Virus record (IMG/VR): IMGVR_UViG_2523533545_000002
Coordinates: 2,718 to 66,717 of that record
Origin: a virus
Lineage: Duplodnaviria; Caudoviricetes
Direction: 5' to 3' (one strand)
Length of the DNA: 64,000 nt
Shown: in pieces, positions 39,929-60,950 of the stretch
Layout of the letters: each line of letters starts with the position of its first letter
How positions within the stretch are numbered: position 1 is the stretch's first letter
The notes under the pieces: generated by a model
What the model saw: the letters and a program-made list of their open reading frames with translations, nothing else
Told to the model about the DNA's origin: nothing
The model's database searches: none
Made by a program: the position numbers and the translations under genes

Positions 39929-40333
39929 ATGATCGAGAAATTCATGCGCGCCCCGTATCGCGAGGGTGCAAGGGGTCCTATTGCCTTCGATTGCTGGGGG
40001 CTGTGCCGGGCGGTCCGGCATGACCTTTTCGGGCTGGACTGGCTGCCTTCGCTGGGCGCGGTGGGAAAGGACAAGATCCGCGAGAACACCAAGGCTTACC
40101 GCGACCTCAGAAAGTCGATGGAGGAGTGCGCGCCAGAGCCTGGCGCGATCGCTGCGGTACTGCGCGGAAAGGCGCTGCTGCATGTTGGCACAGTGCTGTT
40201 GAGCGAAGGTCGCCTGAAGGTGATCGACACAAATCCCGGTGGCGCCTGCCTCCGGACAACCGGCGAGTTCGAAGCCGCTAACCCAAGGGTGGTTTACTAC
40301 CGTGATCGAGTTCTATCCGAACAAGCTGAGTGA
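39929..40333 (+). CDS. NlpC/P60 tail-tip assembly protein (lambda K-like)
   Basis: FDCWGLCRAV...LHVGTV. Confidence 0.82.
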   Translation: MIEKFMRAPYREGARGPIAFDCWGLCRAVRHDLFGLDWLPSLGAVGKDKIRENTKAYRDLRKSMEECAPEPGAIAAVLRGKALLHVGTVLLSEGRLKVIDTNPGGACLRTTGEFEAANPRVVYYRDRVLSEQAE

Positions 40334-43300
40334 CACCGCGCCCCTGGGCACCTGGAAGACCGATCGCCGGATGACCATCGAGGAATGGCTGAAGTCCCAA
40401 GCCACGTCCTACGAACGTCGCGAGAGCCCGCCCATCAGCGCCGTGCTGAACGACGAAGTGATAGAGCAAACCAACTGGCACAAGGTCGCCTTCAAGCCTT
40501 CCGACCTGCTTCAGATCTACCGAGAGCCGAAGGGTACCGACCCGTTCTCCATTACCTTCGCCCTGTTCAAAGGCGCCAAGGCGGTGCTCAAGGCGATCAT
40601 GCCCAAGATGCCGGGCATGCCGTCCAGTGCCGGCACCCAGCAGGGTGACCCGCTGATGGATGCCAGCGCTAAGGGTAACAAGGTCAAACTGGGTGATCCG
40701 GTGCGGCAGATCGCCGGCCACCAGAGAACCTATCCGTCTTACCTGGCTCAGCCGCGCCGCGCTTTTTTGGCTCCGCGCGACCAGCGCGTTGAAATGCTTC
40801 TCTATGTCGGTGAGGGTGAGTACGACATCCCTCTGTCCAAGGTAAAGGTCGGTGAAACGCCTTTGATTTCCCTGGGTGCGGACGCAACCTTCACCATCTA
40901 CCCACCAGGTGCTGACCTGTCAGCTGATCCGGCGCACATCAACTGGTTCAACGCGCCAGAGGTTGGGGCCAGCTCCAGTGGTTCTGCAGGCCTTGAGCTG
41001 ACCATGGCCACCGAGCTGACCCGGGCCGCCACAGCCTCGGCGTACCAGTTTGTCGGTGACACGATCAGCATTCCGGTTGGATCGGGCCAGTTCCCGGCCG
41101 ACTGGTCGAATGGCATCATCATCCGTGTGCTTTCGCCTTACAGCTATGAGGTTGTTGACGGCGGCGCCGGGCGCGACATCATCCGCGGCCCGCTTGAAAT
41201 GCTGAGCCCGTCTCCGGGCATGCTCATTGAGGTGGCCGGGTCGAACGCTGGGATGTACGTGGTGCACAGCTTCACTCCGGCGGTACCGGCTGTGCCAGCA
41301 GATCCTGGCTCAGCATCCACACTGACCGGCTCTGCTGCACCGACGCGATACGATTTCAACGTCACGCCTCTCGGGTTCACTCTTTCGCATGCGGGATCGA
41401 CCTACCCGCTGACGCTGAGCACCGCCACAACTGACCTGGCCGGCCTGGTTTCGGCACTGAACGTGCAGCTCACTGGCGTACCGATCCAGGCCCAGCAATC
41501 ATCGGGTGTGGTCCGATTTGTAGAGCTCACCCCTTTCTTCGGCATGCCTATATCGGCATCTGGCGCTTCGACGGTGCTGGGGTCGGCTCCGGTTGGTGTG
41601 ACTGGGACGGCTACGACCGGAGGCACGCCAGCGCAACCGGCGGAGATGACGCTTGATTACGACGGTGGATCACCCGTGGTAGGCCTGGCTATTGGCCAAG
41701 GTCTGGCCACTATCGGTCCGCGCGGCTTGCGCTACCGGATCACGGCCTACAGCGCGAGCCTGTTAGCTGTTGAGCGTCTGAGCTCGTCAGGTTCAACCGA
41801 CGCGGGCTGGCCTGGCTTCAACAGCATGCAGACCGTAAATGGCTTGATCACACTGGACGCATCCAATCTGCAGGGTGGTTACCGAGGTCCAATTGCCTGT
41901 TGCCCAGAAGGCGAGAAGATCACGGAGATTGAGTGGTCTGTCACTTATGCCAATGGCCTGGCTGGCATCGGTCGAGAGGGCCAGATTTACGAGATCCCGA
42001 CCTACTACGTCTTCGAGTACCGCGACATGGATGTAGCTGGGGCCTGGATCGTAATCGAAAAGATGAACGTGGGCGGTTCACTGGATGCCCAGGGCTTCAC
42101 GGAAAGGGTGGTGCTGCCTTACCCGATGCGTGCCGAGGCCAGGATTCGCAAGCAGTACGTCGACCGGCCGGGCCGAATCAACGACGAAGCTCGAGACGAC
42201 GCGACATGGACCGACCTGCGCGGCCGGATGCAGAGCTCGCCAACCAGCTATACCGGCTTGACGGTTATGACCTGCAACATTCGTGGCGGTGATCGGCTGT
42301 CAGCGCAGTCGGAGAGCCAGGTCAGCGCCGAGGCCACACGAATCCTGCCGCTCATGGAAGGGGGCAAAGGTCCCACCAGAGACATCGTGCCCTGGTGTAT
42401 CTACCAACTGAAGCAGCGCGGTTACACCGATGACGATTTGGACTTGCCCGAATGGCAGGCCTTTCACAACGTCTGCGTTTCCCGCGGCGACACCTACGAC
42501 GAGACGCTGGACGCGACGATCACGGTCAAGGACATGATCAACAACGCCCTGGCTTGCGGGTTCGGTGAGTTGGTGGTGTTCCGGGGCCTGTTGCGTCCGG
42601 TGCGTGATGCCGCTCGGGCCGCGTTCGACGTGAGTTACGGCCCGAAGACGCAGACGTACTCGCCGCAGAACATGACCAAGATGCTGAAGATCAGCGGCGC
42701 GATGCCGTCGATCAACGACTTCGACGGCGTGGACATGGAGTACTTCTCCCGCGAGACATGGGCCTGGGAAACGGTCGAGTGCCGCTGGCCGGGCGACCTG
42801 GGCACCAAGGTCGAGAAGATCAAGATGCCAGGGTTCAGCGACAAGACCAGGGCCTGGCGGTTCGGCATGCGCCGGCGCGGGCATCAGAAGTTCCGCACCG
42901 ACGTTTACACCTGGGAAACCGAGATGGACGGCAGCAACAGCGGATACCTGAGTTTTGCAGCCGTTGCCGATGACGCCCCCAAGCGTTGCCAGAGCGCGAT
43001 CCTTCTGGACTTTGCAGTCACCGGCTCGGGGGCGCTTTTGAGCTCTTCAGAGCCGCTGGACTTCAGCGCCGGGGGCGAGCACTTGATCGGCGTGCGCAAG
43101 CTGGATGGCACGCTGTCGGGCCCATTCACCGCTACGCAAGTCGATCAGTACACCGTCAGAGTTGACGCGCTCGACTTCACGCCGGAAGTCGACGGCCCGC
43201 TGGAGCCGCCGCACATCCTGTTCGGCCCGAGCACCCGCTGGGCCTATCCGACGCTGATCACTAGCTCTGACCCAGCCAACGGCAACGTCGCCATGAAGGG

Positions 43301-43355
43301 CATGCCCTACGACGCCCGCGTTTACACCTACGACGACCAATTCCCGCCGGCCTGA
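40302..43355 (+). CDS. Tail tip / central tail protein (lambda I+J-like)
   Basis: About 1017 aa from GTG at 40302; GDPVRQIAG, LRPVRD, DGVDMEY; last phage gene before the satellite. Confidence 0.85.
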   Translation: MIEFYPNKLSDTAPLGTWKTDRRMTIEEWLKSQATSYERRESPPISAVLNDEVIEQTNWHKVAFKPSDLLQIYREPKGTDPFSITFALFKGAKAVLKAIMPKMPGMPSSAGTQQGDPLMDASAKGNKVKLGDPVRQIAGHQRTYPSYLAQPRRAFLAPRDQRVEMLLYVGEGEYDIPLSKVKVGETPLISLGADATFTIYPPGADLSADPAHINWFNAPEVGASSSGSAGLELTMATELTRAATASAYQFVGDTISIPVGSGQFPADWSNGIIIRVLSPYSYEVVDGGAGRDIIRGPLEMLSPSPGMLIEVAGSNAGMYVVHSFTPAVPAVPADPGSASTLTGSAAPTRYDFNVTPLGFTLSHAGSTYPLTLSTATTDLAGLVSALNVQLTGVPIQAQQSSGVVRFVELTPFFGMPISASGASTVLGSAPVGVTGTATTGGTPAQPAEMTLDYDGGSPVVGLAIGQGLATIGPRGLRYRITAYSASLLAVERLSSSGSTDAGWPGFNSMQTVNGLITLDASNLQGGYRGPIACCPEGEKITEIEWSVTYANGLAGIGREGQIYEIPTYYVFEYRDMDVAGAWIVIEKMNVGGSLDAQGFTERVVLPYPMRAEARIRKQYVDRPGRINDEARDDATWTDLRGRMQSSPTSYTGLTVMTCNIRGGDRLSAQSESQVSAEATRILPLMEGGKGPTRDIVPWCIYQLKQRGYTDDDLDLPEWQAFHNVCVSRGDTYDETLDATITVKDMINNALACGFGELVVFRGLLRPVRDAARAAFDVSYGPKTQTYSPQNMTKMLKISGAMPSINDFDGVDMEYFSRETWAWETVECRWPGDLGTKVEKIKMPGFSDKTRAWRFGMRRRGHQKFRTDVYTWETEMDGSNSGYLSFAAVADDAPKRCQSAILLDFAVTGSGALLSSSEPLDFSAGGEHLIGVRKLDGTLSGPFTATQVDQYTVRVDALDFTPEVDGPLEPPHILFGPSTRWAYPTLITSSDPANGNVAMKGMPYDARVYTYDDQFPPA

Positions 43356-43445: not shown

Positions 43446-43467
43446 AGCCCCACACTGAGCCCCACAC
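43446..43467 (+). repeat. Arm-type integrase binding sites AGCCCCACAC x2
   Basis: 43446-55 and 43458-67; the same tandem occurs at 55783-55803. Confidence 0.8.
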
Positions 43468-43989
43468 GGATTGCTTGCGTGAAGGGCTGATGGTTTGCAA
43501 GCAGGTGGCAGTGCCCACCTAACTGCACGCCAGCCACCAAGCTGTACCGTGTAACTGCCCCGCAGGCATGCTGTAGCGGCCCTGTTGGCCGCGCAGGTGG
43601 CTACCCCCAACCTTTTTGCGGCGCTTAGGGCCCTAGCCCCACGCGGCCATCCATAGCCCCAAGTGCCCCCCCCCCCCGTAAAGTAAAATACGGTGGGGTG
43701 CTGTGCAGGTCTGTAAGCATCCACGAAAAATTTGTGTTTCTAAGGTGCATGGTGCTACGCCGCTTCCTTCCTGCGAAATTGCAATCCACTTGCTCATCCA
43801 TTTGCATTCAACCTGATCAGTCATTTTCATCTGACCACTGGTCACGTCGGGAATTGTTCCCTGACGCGCCACGTATAACAGCCATGCTATAAAATGGCTT
43901 TCGCCGACTGGCAGTAAATTAAGCTTTGTGCATAGATGAACGTCGGCAGCTACAGGGAATGACAAGTTATTTTGGCGTTGGGGTAGTTA

Positions 43990-45213
43990 ATGAGATTGAA
44001 AAAAACCACAGAGGAGTTCATCCGAGACGGAGTAGCGGTTCACGGAAATCGTTATGATTACTCAAAAGTAAAGTATGTGAGCAACAGAAAGAAAGTAGTG
44101 ATTATCTGCAAAAAGCATGGGGGGTTTGAGCAAACCCCAGCAAATCATTTGTATTTTGGGTGCAAGCTCTGTGGCTTTGAAAATGCAGGGAAGTACCATA
44201 AAAAAGACACCGAAAAATTCATAGCGGCTGCGAAAGTGGTCCACGGCAGTAAATATGACTACTCTGTTACCAAATACATTGGCGCCAGAAATTCGCTAAC
44301 TATAATTTGCTCTATACATGGAGAGTTTGAACAGACTGCCGGTGTGCATTTAAGCGGTGCCGGTTGTGAGCCTTGTTCCTACTCGATGCGTGGTAAGCAG
44401 GCACGTATGACATTTGAAGACTTCGTTGACCGAGCAGTTAAGCTTCACGACGGTCGCTATGAATACACGCTTTCGAAGGATTACTTCCAAGGTACTGCTA
44501 CCAAAATTCAAATAGTCTGCCCTGAGCATGGGATATTTGAACAATTGCCTAGCGGACATCTTCAAGGTGGCGGATGCCCCCTGTGCGCTGTAATCAGGAC
44601 AGGCAATTCCATGCGGAAAACGACTGAGTCCTTCATCGAAGATGCGCGTGCAGTCCACGGAATTGCCTACGACTACTCGGAGACTGACTATAAGGGAGCA
44701 TTTGACCGGGTAACGATCATCTGCCCGATAGATGGGGCTTTCAACCAAAGCCCAACTGGCCACCTTGGCGGCACAGGGTGCCCAAAATGCAGTCGGCGCG
44801 CTCAGGGAGCACCTAGAAATCTTGTTCGCGCATTTCGCGGCGAGTTCGATCAACCAAGGAAGGCATTTGTATATATGATCCGCTTCCGCCTTCTATGCAG
44901 TAATACTCCAATTTTCAAAGTTGGGAGCGGCTCTGGTTCGCGTATGAAAACGGTATTGGGCAGCATAAATCGTATCGGTGGCACTGAAGTAGAAATCACG
45001 AGCATCAGTTTCAACACAAGTGGAGAGGCTATTGTGTTCGAGCACATTGCCCACGACCAGATCAGGGCGCACCAGTTCGCCGTCCCGATCGAGTTCAAAT
45101 TTCCTGGCTACTCTGAGGTGTTTTCTAAAGCCCCAGATTTTTCAGCAGTCGAAAAACACTTTGACCTTGAAAGGTTTCGATCTGGAGAACGCTGGGATCC
45201 AAGGAAAAGATAG
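43990..45213 (+). CDS. Four Zn-finger (CapR-homology-like) repeats + GIY-YIG/T5orf172-like C-terminal domain
   Basis: Four ~68-aa repeats HG..YDYS..Y....I.C..HG.F.Q....H..G.GC..C; C-terminal FVYMIRF...FKVG...R...EA..FE...H...GYSEVF. Confidence 0.75.
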   Translation: MRLKKTTEEFIRDGVAVHGNRYDYSKVKYVSNRKKVVIICKKHGGFEQTPANHLYFGCKLCGFENAGKYHKKDTEKFIAAAKVVHGSKYDYSVTKYIGARNSLTIICSIHGEFEQTAGVHLSGAGCEPCSYSMRGKQARMTFEDFVDRAVKLHDGRYEYTLSKDYFQGTATKIQIVCPEHGIFEQLPSGHLQGGGCPLCAVIRTGNSMRKTTESFIEDARAVHGIAYDYSETDYKGAFDRVTIICPIDGAFNQSPTGHLGGTGCPKCSRRAQGAPRNLVRAFRGEFDQPRKAFVYMIRFRLLCSNTPIFKVGSGSGSRMKTVLGSINRIGGTEVEITSISFNTSGEAIVFEHIAHDQIRAHQFAVPIEFKFPGYSEVFSKAPDFSAVEKHFDLERFRSGERWDPRKR

Positions 45214-45454
45214 CGAACCACGCTACTTAGAAACAGCGAAAATTGGACAGAAAAATTCTCTGAAAGACTCGTTTGAGTCGAATTAGGACTTCCGTCGAGC
45301 CTAACGCAAGTATAAAGCAAGAGCCCCCACCTCACCACTGGGCCGGTTTTTTGACACAATTGATCGTACGGGCGAAGCAGCGCGGCGATCCGGGCTGGCT
45401 GTCGAATACGACATTGAAATTAACTATTAATAGTTTTCGTAGGTTTTGATTCAC

Positions 45455-45477
45455 TAGCTCGCTTTTAAAGCGAGCTA
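45455..45477. terminator. Perfect 11-bp inverted repeat between convergent cargo genes
   Basis: TAGCTCGCTTT-T-AAAGCGAGCTA. Confidence 0.45.
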
Positions 45478-45529
45478 AGTATTGGTGCGCGATGCGAATG
45501 GAGTGAGTTATCTAGAACGCTACCGCGCC

Positions 45530-46249
45530 TCAGTTTATAATATCCAGATTCGAAAAGTCACGTTCTAAACTTCTGATCGCTAAGCGCTCGCCTCCAGAGT
45601 CATTAGCGCAATAGTTATAGTAATCCAGAAGCCAGCGCATCTTTTCTAAAACTGTCTCGTGCGAAGATGCATTGTTCTGAATATAGTCCCGGACAAATGG
45701 TTTTAGATCATCTAATTCCTCGCCCATAAAATAGTGAACAAACGCCGAGTTATCCCGATCACGAAAAACTAACGCTCGAACTCCATCTCTGATTCCCTCG
45801 TCGGCGTCAATATGATGCCAGGCAAAATTAAGTACATCATCATTGATGACTATTCTAGGAAACTTTGCGACTTTACTTTCCAAGTGGTAGGCGTTTATCA
45901 GGGCTTGAGAGAACGTCACTCGCTCGTTTGAAAAGTGCTTGCCAAATGCAATGCCACCCCTTACTAAAATATTTCGTTTAAGAAATAACTTCTGCATTGA
46001 TGCCGCGATACCAAGCAGTCCCACCACATTGGATGGGGTAAGTCCAGCTTCCACTATTATCGAGTCAGAGAACATTTTTACATCGCAGCCACTGCCTGCG
46101 GCGCTCCCCGCTACTTCTTCAAAAACCTCTAAGAAAATTGGAAGAAATTTTGGGATTTTACCTTTTGAATCTTCCTCCACCATAGAAGAAAATCCAAGAA
46201 TATCGATAAAAGCGACTAGCCCATAGTCTAAGCTTGCGATTGTCGTCAT
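45530..46249 (-). CDS. Class III nucleotidyl (adenylate/guanylate) cyclase-like protein
   Basis: AFIDILGFS (first metal Asp), FSDS (second Asp), VRGGIAFG, ALINAYHLES...FPRIVI. Confidence 0.72.
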   Translation of the reverse strand: MTTIASLDYGLVAFIDILGFSSMVEEDSKGKIPKFLPIFLEVFEEVAGSAAGSGCDVKMFSDSIIVEAGLTPSNVVGLLGIAASMQKLFLKRNILVRGGIAFGKHFSNERVTFSQALINAYHLESKVAKFPRIVINDDVLNFAWHHIDADEGIRDGVRALVFRDRDNSAFVHYFMGEELDDLKPFVRDYIQNNASSHETVLEKMRWLLDYYNYCANDSGGERLAIRSLERDFSNLDIIN

Positions 46250-47289
46250 TTGGCTACCTCAGCCAATTCAAAAAATAGATCTTTGAAAGTTTGCATCGCT
46301 TCACTACGTTGATCCCAAACACTTCCGCCCCAACCCGTTTGTTCACGAGTTAATTTCCAGACGGGAGTTCCCCACGTCAACATCATCGGCGCCAAACTAG
46401 CAAATTCCGCGATTTCAGCGACTGTGGGGTTCTTCCAACAGGCTTCGGAAACAGTAGCTTTATCGCCTGATGCTGCCACCAAAGATGGCATTAAATCAGA
46501 CATTACACGCTGAGGAATTAACTTCATCCAATGATCAAAAGCTGGCTTAGGAGACCCGCCATACTTTTGAAATCTTTGAACTATTACTCCGCGAAATTCC
46601 GGCTTACCATGCGCCACATTTAGCGATAATTTTTTGAAATCCTCGACTATAGCTGCGTGTTCAGAAATCCATTTTCCGATAATTTGAGATAGTGAACCTA
46701 TAGCTTGGTAATTAAATCTGTCTGGGAAAACAGGAACCATGAAAACATCAGCGGCTAGGAAGCATGCCCGAGTTAAAGCGCCAGCACTTGGCCCCACATC
46801 GACAAGAATGTGACTAAACCCATATTTTTCACCTAGGCGCCGGAGCATGTCATTAATTGCTACATAGTTGCGCTTCTGATGCAAATCATTTGTCGTTCGC
46901 ATGCTGTGCGCTTGCGACAATGTATCTTCGGAGTCACTTAAAGCGATATCTCCTCGAAACAAAAATACATTTTCAGTGGCGCCATTAACTGGAAGTAATT
47001 CTATCCCATCCACATCAACCGTTGAGCGATCACCAATGAATCGAGGGCTTAGTGCCTCTAATATAGTGGTGCCAGGGAGTGGATATTCTCGACCTTCCTT
47101 TTCCGACTTTATATCTAGTTTCTCAATCAGTTGAGACAAGGCGAGTTCGGTTAAATTGCACTGCGGATCAGCGTCAACCATTAAAACTTTGGTATTAAAT
47201 TTCTCGGCTATAGCATGCGCCAAATTGAAAGTCGTTGTGGTCTTAGAAACGCCGCCTTTATGATTGTAAAGCGTTACAATCTTTGTCAT
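46246..47289 (-). CDS. Orphan long ParA/Soj-family ATPase
   Basis: NHKGGVSKTTT deviant Walker A, VDADPQCNLT, ILVDVGPS; no parB; ATGA overlap with the cyclase gene. Confidence 0.9.
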   Translation of the reverse strand: MTKIVTLYNHKGGVSKTTTTFNLAHAIAEKFNTKVLMVDADPQCNLTELALSQLIEKLDIKSEKEGREYPLPGTTILEALSPRFIGDRSTVDVDGIELLPVNGATENVFLFRGDIALSDSEDTLSQAHSMRTTNDLHQKRNYVAINDMLRRLGEKYGFSHILVDVGPSAGALTRACFLAADVFMVPVFPDRFNYQAIGSLSQIIGKWISEHAAIVEDFKKLSLNVAHGKPEFRGVIVQRFQKYGGSPKPAFDHWMKLIPQRVMSDLMPSLVAASGDKATVSEACWKNPTVAEIAEFASLAPMMLTWGTPVWKLTREQTGWGGSVWDQRSEAMQTFKDLFFELAEVAK

Positions 47290-47631
47290 TTTAAATGTCC
47301 ATCCCTGATGCCTGTGGATTTATAAACCATTTTTGTTGCGGTAAATCGAGCCATCGGCTGTGCCTTTCGCAACGCCCCTCACGATAGCGCAGCGCCACTA
47401 CGCCCGTCCATTACCACTTTTGGACGCCCGCAGATGCATTTGAAGCCCAAGGCAGCTATGGCGAGTAAGACAAGGACTCTCTTGATGATCTCCTGCTATA
47501 TTGTCCCAGGTCAATGCGACATCAGCTCAATGAATATAGGCTGATCTCAGCCGGTTCTGATCTGATGTGACTATCCCATTCCGCTTTGGCGAGGCTAAGC
47601 ATCCGATCTTTCGACAGGAGGTGGGGTCGTC

Positions 47632-48861
47632 ATGAAGCTTAAAGTCGCGCTGCTGGTGTTTGTACTGGCTCTGTTTCAGCCACTGGCGCTTGCTGCTGTG
47701 AATGTTGAAGTGCTTATTGAGAAAGCCAAGCAGGGAGACCTATCAGCAATGAAGATGCTTTCTGAATACTGCTCGGAATTTGGTGGCGGCGATAGCAATG
47801 AATGCCAATTTAAAGCGAAAGATATTCCTCAGTTAAAGGATTTTGCTGAAAAGGGAAACTCCGATGCACAACTCTTAATGAGCACGATATATTTAACTGG
47901 CAAAAATGGCGTTCTAGCTGATCAAAATCAAGGAATATCATGGCTTCAGAAATCAGCAGAACAAGGTAATGCAATAGGGCAGTCTTTTCTTGGAATGGTA
48001 TATGGTTCTGGGCAGTTTGGTTTTCCTGTGGACTCCGAGCTCGGAAGAGTCTTGCTTAATAAATCGATCGATCAAGGTAGCAGTTCAGGGATGTTTTTTC
48101 TTGGGTTACTGGAGTTAATGGAACAAAAAGACCAGGAAAAAGGCTTAGAAAAAAGCTTCGCATTGATTCAACAAGCTGCCGAGAAAGGTCTTCCTATTGC
48201 TCAGGTAATGGTGGGGACTATTTATTTAGACGGTGCTTCAGATTTCCCGAAGAATACTGAGAGGGGAATTTACTGGTTAACTAAAGCGGCTGATCAACAG
48301 GACAGCACTGCCTTTATTAAGCTGGGTTCATTGTACCTTGATGGCAGAGAAGGCGTGCCAGTTGAACGATTAAAAGGTGAAGCTTTGATACGTAAAGCTG
48401 CCGAAAGAGGTAATGCTTCAGCACAGATCGAGCTTGGAGATAGGCTTCTCGTAGGCAGAGGGTTAAATACCGACCCTACTCAGGCATTCTCCTGGTACCT
48501 GAAGGCCGCTAAAAATGGAAACGCAAAGGGACAATTCAGTCTTGCCGAGCTCTACTTTGACGGAGTAGGCACTACCCAAGATTATAAGGCGGCTGCGAGT
48601 TGGTACCGAAAATCTGCTGAGCAAGCTAATGAGAGAGCTATCTATAAACTTGCTAATTGCTACGCTTCTGGTTCTGGTGTGCAGCAAGACTACAAGCTAG
48701 CCTACGCTTGGGCACCTTTCGGCGCTGCTATAGATACATATGGATATGGCGGCTTCGCGAGTAAGCGTGACGAGTTTGCTAAAAAATTGTCACCTGCAAA
48801 ACTGGCGAAAGCTCAAGAGTTAGCAGGCGATTACCTTGAGAAATACAAGCCAGCCAAATAG
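47632..48861 (+). CDS. Exported Sel1-repeat protein
   Basis: Signal peptide followed by many AQ..LG..Y..G.G...D...A..W..KAAEQG repeats. Confidence 0.9.
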   Translation: MKLKVALLVFVLALFQPLALAAVNVEVLIEKAKQGDLSAMKMLSEYCSEFGGGDSNECQFKAKDIPQLKDFAEKGNSDAQLLMSTIYLTGKNGVLADQNQGISWLQKSAEQGNAIGQSFLGMVYGSGQFGFPVDSELGRVLLNKSIDQGSSSGMFFLGLLELMEQKDQEKGLEKSFALIQQAAEKGLPIAQVMVGTIYLDGASDFPKNTERGIYWLTKAADQQDSTAFIKLGSLYLDGREGVPVERLKGEALIRKAAERGNASAQIELGDRLLVGRGLNTDPTQAFSWYLKAAKNGNAKGQFSLAELYFDGVGTTQDYKAAASWYRKSAEQANERAIYKLANCYASGSGVQQDYKLAYAWAPFGAAIDTYGYGGFASKRDEFAKKLSPAKLAKAQELAGDYLEKYKPAK

Positions 48862-48983
48862 CAGTGCGCGGTTGCGTCATCAATGGATAACTTGGTCTTT
48901 GTTCGCAAGGAATGCGAATTGCGGGAAATGTATATTCACGTTAGAGACGGGGGCGGCCGTTTATTTAATCACAGGAATCAGCT

Positions 48984-49286
48984 ATGAATGAAGATGAGGA
49001 GAGGGGTTTCCGGAAAGGTGTAGCATACGGGGCCACAATTGCTAGTGGAGTTGCCATAGCGATCGCGCTCTACATTGCGCCTAAGCCGACATTCATCGTT
49101 ATCGCGTGTTGTCTTGTTCTAGCTGGCATCGGCTGGGTGGTCTTGTGGTTGGGAGAGAAATACGAATTCGCTGATGATCAACGCCGTGCGCGTTATGACC
49201 GGATTTGGAAAGTGGTTGGCTACATTACTACCTACGGGCTGATGGCATTTTTGCTTTGGTCTTTCCTGAAAACAGGGCATCTTTAG
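48984..49286 (+). CDS. Small multi-TM membrane protein
   Basis: 100 aa, three hydrophobic segments, AGGA RBS. Confidence 0.7.
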   Translation: MNEDEERGFRKGVAYGATIASGVAIAIALYIAPKPTFIVIACCLVLAGIGWVVLWLGEKYEFADDQRRARYDRIWKVVGYITTYGLMAFLLWSFLKTGHL

Positions 49287-49432
49287 TAAAAATCCTGAGT
49301 GCCGCGGCTTCTTTTCGGGAGTGGGCTTGCATGATGAGTCTTTCGGTGAAAGCACGGAGCGACTCGAAAGCACCCCAATACCTCAATATTGCTAGGCGGT
49401 GATGTCAATAGATGGACGCCGAGGAAGTCTCA

Positions 49433-49828
49433 ATGAAAAAATTATGCATGTTTATCGCTCTCTTCTTATTACTGTGCGCCAAAGCAAGTGCGGAATGGCA
49501 GTCAGTACCTGTAGACTCTATTGAGCGGGCTTTTTTTGTCGAAAATAGTACGATAAAGAAATCACAAAATTTACTTAAACTCTGGATTTTGACTAATTAT
49601 TCATCTCCCCAGCAAGTTGGCAACGATCCAGCGTATCTATCCGAAAAGTATTTCTACGAGATTGACTGTCGTGAAAATAAACTGAGAATGGTGCAGGGTG
49701 CCTTGTACAAAAATATAAACGGAGGGGGTAGTATTATTCATACGGAAAACAGAGCGGGAGAGTGGAGTTTCGTCGTGCCGGGATCAACATACGAAGTGGT
49801 AATCAGTTACATATGCAAAAACATGTAA
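49433..49828 (+). CDS. Exported protein (surface-adhesin E-like)
   Basis: Signal peptide ending ASA-EW; EIDCRENK, WSFVVPGSTYEVVISYIC. Confidence 0.7.
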   Translation: MKKLCMFIALFLLLCAKASAEWQSVPVDSIERAFFVENSTIKKSQNLLKLWILTNYSSPQQVGNDPAYLSEKYFYEIDCRENKLRMVQGALYKNINGGGSIIHTENRAGEWSFVVPGSTYEVVISYICKNM

Positions 49829-49978
49829 TGGTTCGACGTTATCTGCACAGACCAAGCAGGTAAACTCACTATCCAGCGTAAAAAACTCCGTTTCAGCTCC
49901 TGCGGGTTAACTTTGTGGGTAACTAAGTATATACAGGCTGCTGGCGCCGCAGCCTGTATATGCCGTGGTAAAATGTGC

Positions 49979-50566
49979 ATGCCGCGCCACCACCAAGGGG
50001 CCGCCATCTTGCATCGCGCAGACCTACCTACACTGGACATCAGAACCTTGCTGCATCAAGGGTTACTGAGGGACTCCACACCCGGAACTTTGAGTTTAAG
50101 TGAGCTTAGATTTAATTGCGTGGCGCCTGACCGCTCAGCACTGTTAGTTAGTTGGGACGGACACCAGCAATCGTTGCCCCTCCGCTGGACCGGCGTACGT
50201 GGCCGTCCTTGCGCGCACCGAGTTAGCTGGTGCTGCCCTCAATGCGGAAAACCTACCTCGCTGCTCTACCTGCTCGAAACTTTCGCCTGCGCCAAGTGCC
50301 ACGGACTGCGCTCTGGGCTCGGTACTGCTGAGCGGTTGCGCAGGGCTAAGGACGCCGTAGCTGTGTTAGAGGCCGCAGCACAAGGCCCCATTGCATTGCT
50401 GGCACTACTAGCGAGTAGGTCTGTCGTGCAATCCTGCGGCCCGATAGCCCCCGTAGTCGAGGCGGCCGGGCGACGTGATGACGAAAGCAGGATCGTGCTC
50501 CAGCAAGCTCAGCGTGAGCAACATCTGGCGGCGATTCGCCGCGCCAAGCGGGAGCAACTGCCATGA
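49979..50566 (+). CDS. Hypothetical Zn-finger protein (satellite core), paralog 1
   Basis: WCCPQCGKPTSLLY...FACAKCHGL; start position uncertain. Confidence 0.6.
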   Translation: MPRHHQGAAILHRADLPTLDIRTLLHQGLLRDSTPGTLSLSELRFNCVAPDRSALLVSWDGHQQSLPLRWTGVRGRPCAHRVSWCCPQCGKPTSLLYLLETFACAKCHGLRSGLGTAERLRRAKDAVAVLEAAAQGPIALLALLASRSVVQSCGPIAPVVEAAGRRDDESRIVLQQAQREQHLAAIRRAKREQLP

Positions 50567-51195
50567 AGATGGGCGAGGTCCCAGCACTGGAGTTGGGTCT
50601 ATTGCGGCGGTTAGGCGGCCTGGAGCTGGGCACCAAGCTGGAACTGGAGGCCGATGGGGTAACTATCGAGACGCTAGCAGTTACTTTCGCGATACTACAG
50701 GTGACGGCTGATGGCGTGGTGCAACAAATTGAAGTCGTGCCAAACAGATGGGGCGGCTACCTGCGCTGCCCTGATTGTTCAGCGCTCCGCACTAAGTTGT
50801 ACATGGTGAATCGGCTGGCGTGCCGATATTGTCATAGGCTAGTGCGTGGCACATCGCACGACGATGTACTAACAGCGCGAATGGAACACCTGCGCCGATT
50901 GCTGCGATGCGGAGATGAGCCGCTGGAACGCATAGCCAGGCCGCCGAAGATGGCGCGAGAGCGGTTCGACGATTTGCTTGGACAACTGCGTAAGACTGAG
51001 TGCGTGGCCGAGGCCGAAGTACGCCGCTGGATGCAACGCCGCAACATACCCCCGTGGATTATAAATACGCTGGCGCCATCAACACGGCGCGGCGTGGCAA
51101 CGGTAGCGTTGCGGATGGACGCGCCAATACGGTGGGATCGTGTAATGCTGGCGCTGGCTGACCTTAATGCAGCAGAGGCGCAGGCAAATAGATAG
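50563..51195 (+). CDS. Hypothetical Zn-finger protein (satellite core), paralog 2
   Basis: GGYLRCPDCSALRTKLY...ACRYCHRL, RPPKMARERFDDL; ATGA-coupled to paralog 1. Confidence 0.7.
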   Translation: MKMGEVPALELGLLRRLGGLELGTKLELEADGVTIETLAVTFAILQVTADGVVQQIEVVPNRWGGYLRCPDCSALRTKLYMVNRLACRYCHRLVRGTSHDDVLTARMEHLRRLLRCGDEPLERIARPPKMARERFDDLLGQLRKTECVAEAEVRRWMQRRNIPPWIINTLAPSTRRGVATVALRMDAPIRWDRVMLALADLNAAEAQANR

Positions 51196-51230
51196 CTCCA
51201 ATGGGTTATTTTTTACCAAAAAGTTTGGGT

Positions 51231-51390
51231 GCGTTACATACCCCCTTATAGGGGGGTATGTGTAACGTAACGCACCAGCGTTACAGGTTGCGTTACAGCT
51301 GTAACGCCCGTGCTAGGGCGGCTGGTGCGGGATTGCGTTACATGCTGCGTTACGGTAACGCAAAAAGGGTTTGTAACGCAGTTTGTAACG
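51231..51390. repeat. Iteron cluster / putative satellite replication origin
   Basis: Eleven GTAACG/CGTTAC hexamers in both orientations plus the CATACCCCC/GGGGGTATG palindrome, at the 3' end of the primase-helicase gene. Confidence 0.8.
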
Positions 51391-51402
51391 CTGCCTATGA
51401 CC

Positions 51403-53445
51403 CTAAAACTTAGGTTTATTACTCGGCCGAGGGCGGTACTCATCCCCTTGGAGCTGGTCCACCTGCCCCCCATCAATCAAGCGTTTAGCTACACTCCTGT
51501 AGCTCTTGATGTCTGCGGCTTTCATGGCGTCATACCACGTAGACTGCTTGATTCGAGCTCGGTCACCACCAGCCTCATCATAGAGCTTTATCAGTATGGC
51601 CAGCGCCTTGTCCCCCTCTCTGTACGAGGCCTTCTCCCCAGCAGCCTGAATGTCCTCTGGGGCGCAAAACTCAATTACCAACGATGTGTTTTCAGCACCA
51701 TCTTCGTTGTATATGCCTAACGGTACCTGCACGGCCTTGAAGTGGAAGCTAAACGGCTCACCGTCCTTCATCTTGCCAGTAGGGCCGTACGTGGTCGCGT
51801 CAACAACCTTCTCTAGTCCTACGCCTATACTGCTTAGTGCCCAAACAAAGTCTGTGTCGTTGTAGAAGTTACTCGCGCCACGCGCGCCCTTGCTGGTTTC
51901 CTTCCCGCTGTGGTGAACAATAAGCGTTGACGCCCCACAGGCTTGACCGCAAAGACGAACGCCCCGCAAACACCTCCCAACGTCGGAGGGGTTGTTTTCA
52001 TCAACACCGCCATTCAGCGCAGCAAAGGTATCGAACATCACCAGTACCGGCTGTAGAGGGGCTAACTGCGCCCCGAGTGCTTTCATGCAACCGTCATCCG
52101 CCAAGTCCACACCAGTGAAGACAATTTCCAAATTGTCGCCAAACGCACCGAGTTTTTTCACCTGCGCCTTCAGGCGGCGAGATATTCCTCCTTGCCCTTC
52201 GCCACATACGTAAACCACTGGCCCGATGCGCCGTACCTTCATAGTGCCAAACGCCTGCCCCGTGCAAATGCTGTGGGCTACACGCAGTGCTAAGAACGAC
52301 TTATAGCTACCAGATGGACCAAACATCAGCCCGTGAGAGTCTGCCTCTAATACGCCATCGATCAGGTAGGTTGCTGGCTTGCAGCTTGCTGCTAGCTCAT
52401 CCCCTTTGAGGAGGGTAAATCTGGTCATGCACTTAGCTGCTGACACACACCTTCTAACAGCATCTGCCCCTTCATGCTGGTGCAAGTCGTTAAAGTCGTC
52501 GCCCGGTTTATTGCAGAACACCGGCACAGCCAGAAGTGCGCGAGCCTCCCTAGCGGCCTTAACTGCGTCTGGGTGCGGCCCGCTACCGTCCTTGAGTAAA
52601 TCAGCCCCAACAACAATCTCAACATTTGGCCAGTGCTTCCGCAGAGCCTTGGCGACATTAAGGAGGTTAGTGCAACTCAACGCGCAGAATACGGGCAAAC
52701 CGGTAGCTTCTAGCACGCTGAGCCCTGTAGCCACCCCTTCTACAATTACCAGCCGCTCATTGACATCTCCCGCCCCCAGCTTTACGAACCCGCCAGTGCG
52801 GGTGCCATGTCCCGGCAATGACGCTTTTCGTCCCTCCCGGTCAATCAGCTCCACGCTGCTCAGCACCAACTTGCCCCCCACCAACTTGTGGATGGGCGCC
52901 AGTAGTAACTCACCTGTTAGCGGCTCGCCACCTGAGTTGGGGGTGTACCCCAACATCCCCTCAGCCGTTGTGGCGCTAACTCCGTGCAGGCCGGCAGCAG
53001 CCACCTGTTTACGCTCCAAGTATGGAATGGCCATTGGTGCTCCAGCGGCCACCAGTCGAGCAGCCAGCTGCGCCGCCTTGGCTTGCTCGTAGTCGATAGC
53101 TTCCTGCTGAGTCTTGCGCTCGGCCCGACGCAGTAGATCCGCCTTGCTGACGCTGTCCCAACCTCCAATATCGATCCACCCGCTCTTACGGGCAATGTGG
53201 AACAGCGTTGCAATGCCAACACCCCCAGACCCAATGCTGCGCCAAGTGCTGGCGAAATCCTTTTCGTTGTAGCTCGCACCCTTTGCGCTCCATTCCTCGC
53301 AGATGTCCCGACCGTCCTCGCCTAACTCGGACTTAACAGCCGCACAGACCTTGAACCACTCACTACGGTCGCAGTCGGGATCAATGCTAGCTAGCGCTGC
53401 CTTGATTTTTTCCATTGGTACTGCGGTGTGCTCGAAAGAGGTCAT
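51403..53445 (-). CDS. Primase-helicase (PriCT-2 + TOPRIM + AAA_25/RepA-like)
   Basis: IDPDCDRSEWFKV...WS, IVEGVATGLS...GAD...DFNDLH, GPSGSYKS Walker A, FDT, IVHHSGK. Confidence 0.9.
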   Translation of the reverse strand: MTSFEHTAVPMEKIKAALASIDPDCDRSEWFKVCAAVKSELGEDGRDICEEWSAKGASYNEKDFASTWRSIGSGGVGIATLFHIARKSGWIDIGGWDSVSKADLLRRAERKTQQEAIDYEQAKAAQLAARLVAAGAPMAIPYLERKQVAAAGLHGVSATTAEGMLGYTPNSGGEPLTGELLLAPIHKLVGGKLVLSSVELIDREGRKASLPGHGTRTGGFVKLGAGDVNERLVIVEGVATGLSVLEATGLPVFCALSCTNLLNVAKALRKHWPNVEIVVGADLLKDGSGPHPDAVKAAREARALLAVPVFCNKPGDDFNDLHQHEGADAVRRCVSAAKCMTRFTLLKGDELAASCKPATYLIDGVLEADSHGLMFGPSGSYKSFLALRVAHSICTGQAFGTMKVRRIGPVVYVCGEGQGGISRRLKAQVKKLGAFGDNLEIVFTGVDLADDGCMKALGAQLAPLQPVLVMFDTFAALNGGVDENNPSDVGRCLRGVRLCGQACGASTLIVHHSGKETSKGARGASNFYNDTDFVWALSSIGVGLEKVVDATTYGPTGKMKDGEPFSFHFKAVQVPLGIYNEDGAENTSLVIEFCAPEDIQAAGEKASYREGDKALAILIKLYDEAGGDRARIKQSTWYDAMKAADIKSYRSVAKRLIDGGQVDQLQGDEYRPRPSNKPKF

Positions 53446-53561
53446 ACACCACCCCACCTGGGCACGGGGGCACGCCGCATAGCCACTCGCTGATCAAGAT
53501 AATGGTCAAGCGAGCCAGCCATGGCAGCCGGTTCTGCCTTGTTTATCGAAAGCTTTTCCAT
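53442..53561 (-). CDS. Small hypothetical protein between alpA and the primase gene
   Basis: 39 aa, overlaps the primase start; GGAG upstream. Confidence 0.35.
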   Translation of the reverse strand: MEKLSINKAEPAAMAGSLDHYLDQRVAMRRAPVPRWGGV

Positions 53562-53681
53562 TGGGTTCTCTCCCGAGAAGCCCAGCCAGCAAAGGGGGGC
53601 GGTGCGTGCAAAGGGGGTGTGAAATTGCAATTGTGTTGTTACGCCCCAAAGCCGCCGACGCCTTAACTGGTCGGCGGTCTT

Positions 53682-53885
53682 TTATTGGGGTTGATCAAGC
53701 TGAGTATTTACCCAGGACTCCACCATCTGGCTGTCCCAGCCGACGGCGCGCAGACCTGCAATTGGCTTCCCCTTGGGGAACTTGCCCTCGGCCATCAATT
53801 CGTAAATTTTAGTGCGACTAAGACCCATAACTTTTTGTAGGTCATGGATGCGTAAAATTGTGCGAGGGAGTGGAGTGGTGTTCAT
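53682..53885 (-). CDS. alpA: AlpA-family regulator / excisionase
   Basis: ILRIHDLQKVMGLSRTKIYELMAEGKFPK...VGWDSQMVESWV. Confidence 0.9.
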   Translation of the reverse strand: MNTTPLPRTILRIHDLQKVMGLSRTKIYELMAEGKFPKGKPIAGLRAVGWDSQMVESWVNTQLDQPQ

Positions 53886-53986
53886 GTTTGGTTGCCCCAA
53901 GTATGGCCACGGGCTGCGGCGTACAGGGCATATGCTGTGCGGTACGGCGGGTTTCAAAAATTACCCAGCCGTGCCGGTAAAGGGGT

Positions 53987-54535
53987 TTACCGTAACGCTT
54001 TGGGGGTTTTAGGAGAGCGGCCTGGATTACTGGCATAGGCTGGCGCAACGGGTTTTATCCACTTTTTGATCCGTTCAAGTGAAGGTAAATCTTCGCGGCC
54101 TTCGCGTTTCAGCACGTCCTTAACTAATCCCGCCATATCCTTAAGTCGAAACTCCTGATCGGTGTCGGCTTGCCATACTTCGGAAGCAAGTGTTCTGGCG
54201 CGATCCTGTACTGTCGCCTTGGCGGCGTTTACTGGTCCCAAAGAGCGCTGGAAGACTTGTTCTGCCTTCTTTTTGTCTACGATATGCGGCACCACCAGCG
54301 TGGCGCCAAGCTTAAAGAAGCAAACTATTACATTGGTCAGCTGCTCTCGCTGTTCATCCGTCAGCGTCTTCGCCAGTGGCGCTATGGAGTCTAATAGCGC
54401 CATCAACTCTTCTCTTCTACTCGGCTCAGTCGCAGGGTTCTCTTCCAAATAAGCCAAGCCCACAAGCAAGCCATATGGCCCCACGAGACCCTTGGTGTCA
54501 GGGAAGTATGCTTTCAATGCTTCAAGCGCATTCAC
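53987..54535 (-). CDS. Hypothetical protein coupled to the integrase, with C-terminal HTH-like segment
   Basis: ATGA overlap with int; LPSLERIKKWIKPVAP. Confidence 0.7.
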   Translation of the reverse strand: MNALEALKAYFPDTKGLVGPYGLLVGLAYLEENPATEPSRREELMALLDSIAPLAKTLTDEQREQLTNVIVCFFKLGATLVVPHIVDKKKAEQVFQRSLGPVNAAKATVQDRARTLASEVWQADTDQEFRLKDMAGLVKDVLKREGREDLPSLERIKKWIKPVAPAYASNPGRSPKTPKALR

Positions 54536-55776
54536 GCTCCACCCCTCCCGAATGTGCCATGCACTACGTTCACCGCTGGCGCGGTAGTGGCGTAGTCAGC
54601 CCATGCTTGCATCAGCTCGCGGCGCTTTTCCAGCAGGTTGCTACGACTGTAGGCGGCCTCTGTCTGGTCGCGTTCATCGTGCGCCAGCGCCAGCTCACAA
54701 ACTTCACGCGGATAGTGGGTGTATTCACTCGCCCATGTGCGGAAGGTGGCGCGGAAGCCGTGGGTAGTTACGTCCGGTAGCCCCATTGTGCGCAGCAGGT
54801 TGAAGGTCGCGCCAATGTGCATGACGCCAGACTTGCTGCCGGTGCCTGGAAACAGATAAGTACTGCCAGCGATGCGCGGGATGGTTCGTAGTAAAGCAAC
54901 TGCTTGTCTTGAAAGTGGAATTGAAAACGGCTGCCGGGTTTTCATGCGTTCGGCAGGTAAGCTCCACGTGGCGGCGTCAAGGTCAAACTCGTCCCAAGTG
55001 GCAAAGCGAACCATTCCAGCGCGAGCGGCAGTCAAAATTAACAATTGCAGCGCATTAGCATCACGCCCCTCCATGGATGCCAGTCTTCCCATGAAAGTCG
55101 GTAGGTCGCGCCAAGCCATCGCTGGATGTTTGGTTTTTTGCCTAGCGCGCTTTTTGTCAGCACGACTTAAAAGGTTGTCCAGGTGGCCACGCCAGCGTGC
55201 AGGATTCTCCCCGGTCCTTAATTTGAGCGTTTTGGCTGCATCCAGCACCCGCTCAATGTGGCCGCGCAACTCATCGGCTGTCGCTGGTTTCGCACTCCAG
55301 ATCGGCTGCAGAGCACGTAGTACATGCTCCGTCTGTACCTGATCAGGTCGCAGCGTGCCCATAGTTGGGAGTGCGTAGCGCTCCATAATTGACAACCAGC
55401 CTTTGCGGCGGCGTTCAGTCAGGTGTTGGCAGTGTGCCGAATGGTAATCCAGCACCAGCGATTTGAAGGTAACGACATTTGCCTTCTCTGCTAGGTGCTG
55501 TTCTTGCTGGCGCTGCTGTTCGGCTCGGCGCTCATCCAAAGGGTCGCAGCCCTTCAGGATCAGGGCCCGTGCTTCAGCGGCGGCCTGTCTTGCTGTTTTG
55601 AGTTTTACCGCTGGATACGGTCCCAAGCCCATATCTCGGCGCTTGCCGTTGAGTTGGTAGCGCAGCAGCCATGACTTGTTGCCCCCGGCCTTGATTACCA
55701 GATAAAGCCCATCACCGTCCGAGTATCTACCCGGCTCGGTTAGGTGCTCGACTTGCTTTGGATTTAGCTCGCTCAT
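54532..55776 (-). CDS. int: P4-like tyrosine integrase (arm-binding domain)
   Basis: YSDGDGLYLVI...W..RY arm domain; TAAR, HGFRATF, LAH, AAYSR catalytic residues. Confidence 0.95.
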   Translation of the reverse strand: MSELNPKQVEHLTEPGRYSDGDGLYLVIKAGGNKSWLLRYQLNGKRRDMGLGPYPAVKLKTARQAAAEARALILKGCDPLDERRAEQQRQQEQHLAEKANVVTFKSLVLDYHSAHCQHLTERRRKGWLSIMERYALPTMGTLRPDQVQTEHVLRALQPIWSAKPATADELRGHIERVLDAAKTLKLRTGENPARWRGHLDNLLSRADKKRARQKTKHPAMAWRDLPTFMGRLASMEGRDANALQLLILTAARAGMVRFATWDEFDLDAATWSLPAERMKTRQPFSIPLSRQAVALLRTIPRIAGSTYLFPGTGSKSGVMHIGATFNLLRTMGLPDVTTHGFRATFRTWASEYTHYPREVCELALAHDERDQTEAAYSRSNLLEKRRELMQAWADYATTAPAVNVVHGTFGRGGA

Positions 55777-55782
55777 TGCAAC

Positions 55783-55803
55783 AGCCCCACACTCAGCCCC
55801 ACA
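55783..55803 (+). repeat. Arm-type integrase binding sites AGCCCCACA(C) x2
   Basis: Same tandem as 43446-43467. Confidence 0.8.
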
Positions 55804-59747: not shown

Positions 59748-60893
59748 ATGTCCGGTAATAATATAAAAAAATATGATTACATAGATGCCCTTCGTGGGGT
59801 CGCGATAGCCCTAGTAGTCCTTGTTCACGCCTCTCAGTACGTCAAACCATTATCTGATGTATTGATGCGAATAATGACCGAGGGAGCAAGAGGTGTTCAG
59901 CTTTTTTACATCGCTAGCGCTATCACACTTTGTATGTCATGGAGCGCACGACGGAAAGATGATCTGAATCCGATCCGTGATTTCTATTTGCGAAGAGTTT
60001 TCAGAATTGCGCCAATGTTCTACTTGGCTATCGCGTTGTTTCTCTTTTTGAATGGTGCGGCGGCGTCATACTTTGCCCCGAATGGTATTAGCTGGTGGTT
60101 CGTGCCTGTGACCGCGTTGTTTTTGCATGGTTTCCACCCTGAAACCATAAACTCGGTCGTTCCAGGAGGTTGGTCAGTAGCAGTTGAGATGACCTTCTAT
60201 CTCGTATTTCCTCTACTAGTTCGTATTGAAAGTTTTAAATATCTTGTTTTACTTCTGTTGCTTTCGCTGTTTCTTCAGAAGGCGAACGCGCCGATTGCAG
60301 GGGTGATTTTTCAGTATGAACCTACTCAGAAATATCTGATCGAAGGTTTTGCCTTCTATAATTTCATTGGTCAATTGCCGGTGTTTGTAATTGGATTGAT
60401 CACATACCGATTTCTTGCCACGACGCGACAAGTTGATGCGAGGCTTGTGGCGTTCGCCTCCGCCGTGTTTTTAGTGCTTGCCTTCGAGTTCTGGAACCCC
60501 CATCAGACTTTTGTTCCAAGTCATGTAGTTGCAGGGGCGATTTTTGCCATTTTTTCGGTGTTTTTAGCCAGGAAACCAATTGCCTTGCTGGTAAATCCAC
60601 TGACGGTGCTGCTTGGGAAGTTGAGCTTTAGCATGTACCTCGTGCATATCGCGATTCTTAAACTGTTGAGCGGGACAAAAATTCCGGCTGCAATGGGTGA
60701 GGGTGATGTGAACAGTGTTTTGTTTTTTTTGTTTGTTCTCGCCGTCACCGCGGTTGTGTCATGGGTAACCTATAACACTATCGAAAAGCCAGGGGTTGCG
60801 ATGGGGCGGAGATTGATTGAAAGGCTGGAAGCTGGGCGTGCAGCCGAACTGTTGGCTACGAGTCCAACGAAGTTGAAAAATAGTAGTCAATAG
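59748..60893 (+). CDS. Acyltransferase-3 (OafA-like) membrane protein
   Basis: IDALRGVAIALVVLVH, GVQLFYIAS, RRVFRIAP, WSVAVEMTFY, SFSMYLVH. Confidence 0.9.
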   Translation: MSGNNIKKYDYIDALRGVAIALVVLVHASQYVKPLSDVLMRIMTEGARGVQLFYIASAITLCMSWSARRKDDLNPIRDFYLRRVFRIAPMFYLAIALFLFLNGAAASYFAPNGISWWFVPVTALFLHGFHPETINSVVPGGWSVAVEMTFYLVFPLLVRIESFKYLVLLLLLSLFLQKANAPIAGVIFQYEPTQKYLIEGFAFYNFIGQLPVFVIGLITYRFLATTRQVDARLVAFASAVFLVLAFEFWNPHQTFVPSHVVAGAIFAIFSVFLARKPIALLVNPLTVLLGKLSFSMYLVHIAILKLLSGTKIPAAMGEGDVNSVLFFLFVLAVTAVVSWVTYNTIEKPGVAMGRRLIERLEAGRAAELLATSPTKLKNSSQ

Positions 60894-60950
60894 ACGCGGT
60901 AGCGCGTTTCTATATTGGAATGTCGATTGAGTTGAATGCATAGGTGTGGA

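Follow-up and report, generated by a model that had tools for sequence, protein, structure and literature searches.

A ParA-type ATPase gene coupled to a cyclase-fold gene in a prophage-borne P4-like element: a candidate toxin–regulator module

What is a ParA-type ATPase doing beside a protein that resembles a nucleotidyl cyclase? The question is raised by a 1.76-kb two-gene unit in the virus record IMGVR_UViG_2523533545_000002 (Caudoviricetes), of which we analyzed a 64-kb stretch (positions 2,718 to 66,717 of the record). This whole stretch is referred to as the window, and all coordinates refer to it. An initial annotation, made from the sequence alone, had proposed a candidate undescribed two-gene system with ATGA translational coupling in an AT-rich setting, in which the ATPase gates a cyclase-fold enzyme. 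The two open reading frames (ORFs) and their overlap were found where they had been placed, based on the ORF list and direct reading of the sequence, and all of the motifs cited (KGGVSKT in the ATPase; FIDILGF, FSD and INAYHLES in its partner) are present in the translations. The AT-rich setting was likewise evident, with a GC fraction of 0.44–0.48 over 44001–50000 versus ~0.60 in the flanks. As argued below, the pair is most likely a toxin–regulator module, possibly anti-phage, rather than a DNA-partition system. Its parts are:

46246..47289, minus strand: ParA/Soj-type deviant Walker A ATPase of 347 amino acids (aa) (P0001), from the ORF list and Pfam

45530..46249, minus strand: class III cyclase-fold protein of 239 aa (P0002), from the ORF list and AlphaFold2 (AF2)/Foldseek

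46246..46249, minus strand: ATGA overlap between the stop codon of the ATPase gene (TGA) and the start codon of the partner gene (ATG), read directly from the sequence and indicating translational coupling

47290..47631, minus strand: upstream intergenic region, bordered on its far side by a divergent Sel1-repeat gene and presumed to hold the promoter of the pair

The genome to which the window belongs has one copy of the module. Both ORFs are real genes: at E ≤ 1e-3, a search of one library with the partner gave 412 relatives, and a search of another gave 5406 cluster representatives. Promoter and terminator scans around the pair revealed nothing exceeding the shuffled background; a single sigma-70-like match lies upstream (47514..47485, minus strand), a number not above that in shuffled sequence.

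Searches with the 239-aa partner returned no match in Pfam (E ≤ 0.1), NCBIfam (E ≤ 1) or PADLOC, and the sole library match was to phrog_23933 (4.8e-41), a PHROG family of unknown function. A single-sequence search of PDB sequences gave chance matches only, and the ESM Atlas gave unnamed clusters only, besides one sub-threshold cyclase lead. Structure was more informative: the AF2 model built from a 38-sequence alignment had a predicted local distance difference test (pLDDT) score of 92, and Foldseek returned at least 165 PDB matches at E ≤ 1e-3, with ranks 1–48 all occupied by adenylyl or guanylyl cyclases (best scores E ~2e-6 and template modeling (TM) score ~0.5). Based on this model, we confidently assign the partner a class III nucleotidyl cyclase/palm fold (beta-alpha-beta-beta-alpha-beta). 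A profile search of PDB sequences yielded six marginal matches (E ~1.2), all to adenylate cyclases, and at this marginal level DILGF lines up with FVDISGF, and FSD with FAGD, in human soluble adenylyl cyclase; we take these to be the two metal-binding Asp motifs of that enzyme.

Fourteen positions are invariant in the 38 family sequences: D16, L18, G19, F60, S61, D62, R97, G98, A120, E124, A128, R132, K203 and W206. Among the motifs of the window protein (FIDILGF at residues 14–20, FSD at 60–62 and INAYHLES at 118–125), the first two hold both metal-binding Asp residues of class III cyclases, D16 on strand 1 and D62 in the beta2–beta3 hairpin, and the RxGxxxG strand retains its Arg as well. 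The third differs from the NxxxR helix that carries the transition-state Asn and Arg: N119 is present but H122 takes the place of the Arg, and neither position is conserved in the family (consensus ALIxAYxLES). The model, the Foldseek matches and the alignment thus bear out what had been proposed from the sequence, namely a cyclase fold with both metal Asp residues kept and the transition-state residues altered. Further differences from class III cyclases and from PycC of Pycsar are the lack of any match to the class III cyclase Pfam model (PF00211) or to the PADLOC PycC models, an extra C-terminal helical region that contains the invariant K203 and W206, and the lack of a cyclic-nucleotide receptor effector in the window pair. 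With a cyclase fold and metal site of this kind, the chemistry of the partner need not be that of a cyclase. Relatives of ~600 aa were considered as possible ATPase–cyclase fusions and rejected; they have no Pfam domains, and one 358-aa relative carries DUF433.

A link to a known toxin came from phage genomes. In a tblastn search of phage records, the partner hit one gene, found in six P2-like Burkholderia phages. The copy in phiE52237, gp8 (YP_293707.1; 29.6% identity, E 8e-5), immediately follows a DUF4065 gene (YP_863932.1) in the region that separates the integrase gene from the portal gene. The partner-family profile matched gp8 with 101 bits over profile positions 3–192, with all core motifs kept (DILGF, FSD, RGGIA.G and AYxxES...PR in both). 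Judged by these alignments, the partner is a homologue of gp8, the PanT toxin of prophage phi52237. PanT is toxic in Escherichia coli and is neutralized by PanA, which co-purifies with it; it hits transcription first and translation second, leaves ATP levels unchanged, induces RelA-dependent guanosine tetraphosphate (ppGpp) and was termed a "putative nucleotide cyclase" (Kurata et al. 2022, PMC8832971).

The resemblance between the two loci includes their layout: each is a two-gene operon with a toxin of this family, the partner gene upstream and a location in the accessory region of a temperate mobile element. They differ in the neutralizer, which is a 157-aa DUF4065/Panacea protein in phi52237, whereas the gene adjacent to and upstream of the cyclase-fold gene in the window encodes the 347-aa ParA-type ATPase. 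The toxins also differ in size (314 versus 239 aa), share only ~30% identity and have different C-terminal regions. We collected 80 partner-homologue loci (L001–L080) from species-representative genomes using a narrow partner alignment as the query; an iterative search with phi52237 PanA found no match in any of them, including the 24 in which the partner is paired with a ParA.

The ATPase itself matches the Pfam families AAA_31 (1.5e-24) and CbiA (3.3e-14), while NCBIfam ParA models cover it only partly, with scores far under the model cutoffs. Residues 9–18 read NHKGGVSKTT, and N9, H10, K11, G12, G13, V14, K16, T17, D39, D41 and D164 are invariant in 24 orthologues. These include the hallmarks of the ParA/MinD superfamily, that is, the deviant Walker A motif KGGxxK[ST], Walker A' and the Walker B Asp (K11, K16, T17, D39, D41 and D164). 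Because the catalytic residues are invariant across the orthologues, the protein looks like a competent ParA/MinD-type ATPase. It also carries family-specific insertions and a C-terminal helical extension. Its AF2 model (pLDDT 91.6) has PDB 3PG5 (DIP2308) as its top match (Foldseek 3.9e-13; profile 3.2e-41, near full length), and Soj, ParA and McdA rank behind this entry in both structure and profile matches. A structural-genomics entry from Corynebacterium diphtheriae that is labeled uncharacterized, 3PG5 is a member of the extended ParA subfamily. Membership of PADLOC PDC-M28B was considered for the ATPase and rejected, the match being weak and confined to P-loop residues 3–42. A Pfam scan of the ORFs flanking the pair found no ParB-like neighbor, and the parS consensus is absent from the 64-kb window with up to 3 mismatches allowed. 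The locus has neither the centromere-binding protein nor the site of a ParABS system, as the initial annotation had noted.

The two genes are inherited together over long distances. For all 24 of the closest genomic partner homologues, the gene immediately upstream, in the same orientation, encodes this ParA subtype (E = 1e-87 to 1e-173 for those genes that are complete). The loci are from Gamma-, Beta- and Alphaproteobacteria, Myxococcota, Gemmatimonadota, Desulfobacterota, Bacillota, Planctomycetota and a Methanothrix archaeon. For the reverse test, 80 metagenome loci were retrieved with the ParA alignment, and a cyclase-like gene followed every ParA of ≥41% identity that had enough downstream contig to judge. 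Besides the window copy, we obtained 44 intact adjacent pairs from Proteobacteria, Myxococcota, Firmicutes, Planctomycetota and one archaeon, with ORF-call gaps of −71 to +16 nt that were mostly overlaps of 1–4 nt. Distance matrices of the ATPase and the partner were strongly correlated over these 44 pairs (r = 0.89), a value reached by 0 of 2000 Mantel permutations.

No third conserved gene was found beside the pair in the 24 genomic loci, where the flanks are heterogeneous, with genes as different as those for ribonucleotide reductase and aminotransferases and, occasionally, BREX, Shango, IetA or PDC genes. The picture that emerges from the 24 loci and 44 intact pairs is the conserved, self-contained two-gene module that had been anticipated. 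An 89%-identical copy in Pseudomonas fluorescens sits in a different island, adjoining queA-tgt-yajC-secDF, which indicates that the two genes travel together. The module is rare and patchily distributed: of 400 other genomes of the phylum that were sampled, 3 have it, and blastn of the operon against phage records gave no match. More distant relatives of the partner have neither ParA nor PanA and share no common upstream gene; their neighborhoods are rich in type I restriction–modification subunits, Mrr, methylases and integrases, with some members inside type I restriction–modification operons and one plasmid copy adjoining Dsr1.

A sister clade of the ParA subfamily, aligning end to end at 28–36% identity, has a different partner. 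Here the ATPase gene is followed by one for a protein of 200–250 aa, and 28 of 29 such proteins fall into one cluster, which shows no relationship to the cyclase family (hhalign probability 0.1%). These proteins score above the curated cutoff of the Pfam model HEPN_RiboL-PSP, with the MAE_28990/18760 model under its cutoff, and the HEPN ribonuclease (RNase) motif RRNxIxH is intact in 26 of 26 full-length sequences. Examples are:

L124:3001-4810, L127:3001-4684, L088:1501-3133 and ~25 further metagenome loci: ParA–HEPN_RiboL-PSP dyads

Such dyads of the sister clade are common in metagenomes. At one further locus (L140:699-2665), a sister-clade ParA is followed by a 312-aa protein that has no Pfam or PADLOC match and falls outside both the HEPN and the cyclase partner clusters; it may be a third effector type.

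A dyad of a ParA/Soj ATPase and a HEPN protein of the MAE_18760 family was previously predicted to be a toxin–antitoxin system, with the ATPase as antitoxin and the HEPN protein as toxin (Anantharaman et al. 2013, PMC3710099); no experimental test of this prediction was found in the literature searched. The window pair shares with that dyad an upstream ParA/Soj-like ATPase tightly coupled to, and co-inherited with, a downstream gene of a toxin class (44 pairs plus the window). It differs in having an unrelated cyclase-fold protein in place of the HEPN RNase, HEPN partners being confined to the sister clade. One ATPase lineage with two unrelated toxin-class partners is what one would expect if a regulator could exchange its effectors.

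Taken together, we think it probable that the pair is a two-gene toxin–regulator module of the type II toxin–antitoxin or abortive-infection kind, in which the ATPase restrains or gates a cyclase-fold toxin. Under this reading, the ATGA overlap would keep the ATPase in a fixed ratio to the cyclase-fold protein, and the ATPase would bind the enzyme and hold it inactive, possibly by preventing the dimerization that class III cyclases need to form their active sites. A trigger, which could be phage infection, loss of the element or a shift in the nucleotide- or DNA-bound state of the ATPase, would release the toxin. The metal site at D16 and D62 would then convert nucleotides to a non-canonical product or adduct, leading to growth arrest that, as in the validated homologue PanT, would act mainly on transcription. 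The absence of a conserved third gene makes a diffusible signal to a separate effector unlikely, and the cyclase-fold protein is itself the probable effector. The cargo location and the neighborhoods of the wider family make an anti-phage role plausible.

Several observations weigh against this interpretation. The partner and PanT share only ~30% identity, and their alignment does not extend over the C-terminal helix with K203 and W206. The genes beside the pair are mostly housekeeping genes, with defence genes only scattered among them, which falls short of showing defence-island enrichment, and pattern scans of IMG/VR with the partner alignment found no copy or relative. The ATPase is also large and more conserved than its partner (mean pairwise distance 0.48 versus 0.64), the opposite of the pattern in classical labile antitoxins, which counts against the simple-antitoxin form of the proposal. 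Because the ATPase is the more conserved of the two, we favor for it a sensor or scaffold role, comparable to that of AriA in PARIS, over that of a labile classical antitoxin. In PARIS, the AriA ATPase releases the AriB toxin, which it otherwise holds, on sensing a phage trigger. The likeness is one of analogy only: in both cases an ATPase would restrain the toxin product of the next gene downstream, and the genes are carried in satellite or prophage hotspots (NetFlax paper, PMC10440598). AriA is an ABC/AAA_15-type ATPase and AriB a TOPRIM nuclease, and neither has a sequence relationship to the window pair.

A broader version of the proposal is more tentative. A family of ParA/Soj-type ATPases might be the common sensor or scaffold of an unnamed class of abortive-infection systems with interchangeable effectors, either a HEPN RNase or a cyclase-fold enzyme; infection would free the cyclase-fold enzyme, whose nucleotide product or adduct would stop transcription. 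We regard this as possible, though clearly less likely than the restrained-toxin module itself; if true, such chemistry would be undescribed so far for the class III cyclase fold.

The main rival, which we disfavor, is a positioning system with an enzyme as cargo. ParA/Soj ATPases are known as positioning machines, and an ATPase of the ParA/MinD type could spread the cyclase-fold enzyme or complex over the nucleoid in the style of McdA, McdB and the carboxysome, with the partner as cargo or adaptor. The ATPase retains every catalytic ParA residue, its nearest characterized structures are Soj, ParA and McdA, and in known ParA/MinD systems the partner gene also lies immediately downstream of the ATPase gene. 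Nevertheless, we consider this unlikely, given a partner homologous to a validated toxin, a sister clade that pairs with an active-motif HEPN RNase, and the rare, patchy occurrence of the module on mobile elements. The N-terminus of the partner (MTTIASLDYG) is non-basic and is not conserved in the 38-sequence alignment, unlike the ATPase-stimulating peptides of ParB, MinE and McdB, which are basic.

Less likely still is signaling of the Pycsar kind, in which the ATPase would sense infection and the cyclase would make a diffusible signal, or drain nucleoside triphosphates (NTPs), with the effector encoded elsewhere. A cyclase fold with both metal-binding Asp residues and a place in mobile-element cargo fit such a scheme. 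Pycsar, however, joins PycC to a cyclic-nucleotide-binding effector, whereas the 24 genomic loci have no conserved third gene, and the canonical Asn and Arg are unconserved in the partner family. No PADLOC model of Pycsar, CBASS or Thoeris matches the pair, in agreement with the mismatch noted at the outset. Two mechanisms suggested with the initial annotation fare poorly. A Pycsar-like signal to a separate effector is unlikely given the lack of a conserved third gene and the fact that PanT is toxic by itself when expressed in a heterologous host. NTP depletion is unlikely too, as ATP levels stayed the same with PanT (PMC8832971). The gating of a cyclase-fold enzyme by the ATPase, which was part of the same proposal, stays the best mechanistic reading.

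Plasmid-type partition or maintenance of the P4-like element that carries the pair, with the cyclase-fold protein replacing ParB, is very improbable: although it would suit an element with a ParA-family ATPase and a potential for episomal replication, ParB and the parS consensus are missing from the window, the same pair occurs at chromosomal sites unrelated to the element and in an archaeon, and the fold and conserved catalytic residues of the partner are those of an enzyme, its fold not being a DNA-binding one.

As to novelty, the description of the pair as an undescribed system stands in part. The pair is absent from PADLOC 2.0 and from the literature searched, where nothing relevant was found on a ParA-like ATPase with a cyclase in phage defence and where the NetFlax paper (PMC10440598) makes no mention of a ParA–cyclase pair. 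Both halves do have precedent, in PanT (PMC8832971) and in the ParA/Soj–HEPN dyads (PMC3710099). As a clean, compact and widely conserved unit, found from Proteobacteria to an archaeon, the pair offers a test case for a predicted toxin-restraining ParA subfamily, and it links PanT, an orphan validated toxin, to a large unannotated family (5406 cluster representatives). Once worked out, its product and the trigger of the ATPase would add a new effector chemistry and a new type of regulator to the catalogue of toxin–antitoxin and defence systems.

The window holds a siphovirus-type prophage, which also has portal and major head protein genes, and the pair lies in an integrative element inserted among its late genes. 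The satellite-cargo setting that had been claimed for the pair was borne out by the element's bounding repeat, integrase and primase/helicase: a 21-nt direct repeat (43446-43466 and 55783-55803, AGCCCCACACT[G/C]AGCCCCACA) flanks 12.3 kb, and the low-GC cargo of this element (~44000–50000; ~45% GC) contains the pair. In order along the window, the features are:

15140: CI-like repressor, prophage gene

25139: large terminase, prophage gene

36052: tape measure protein, prophage gene

40239-43355: tail protein J, directly before the insert

43446..55803: P4-like integrative element of 12.3 kb, between tail gene J and the remaining late genes, recognized by bounding repeat, integrase, primase/helicase and GC

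43990-45213, plus strand: HNH/CapR-like cargo gene, 407 aa (PHROG HNH endonuclease, 3.2e-67)

47632-48861, plus strand: Sel1-repeat gene, divergent from the pair (Pfam 1.5e-51)

49412-49828, plus strand: adhesin-E-like lipoprotein gene, in the same low-GC cargo

51403-53457, minus strand: primase/helicase, in the element

54532-55776, minus strand: P4-type integrase, in the element

58379: GH19 endolysin gene, after the element

The HNH-like gene at 43990-45213 converges on the pair and has sub-threshold Pfam matches to CapR homology and zinc-ribbon models. Between this gene and the pair lies a perfect 8-bp inverted repeat (45455-45477; TAGCTCGC ... GCGAGCTA) with a 7-nt loop, followed by no T-run on either strand. 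Beyond the endolysin gene, a second low-GC stretch (0.47) contains two adjoining Acyl_transf_3 acyltransferase genes (59748-62063, plus strand), which may be a surface-modification moron.

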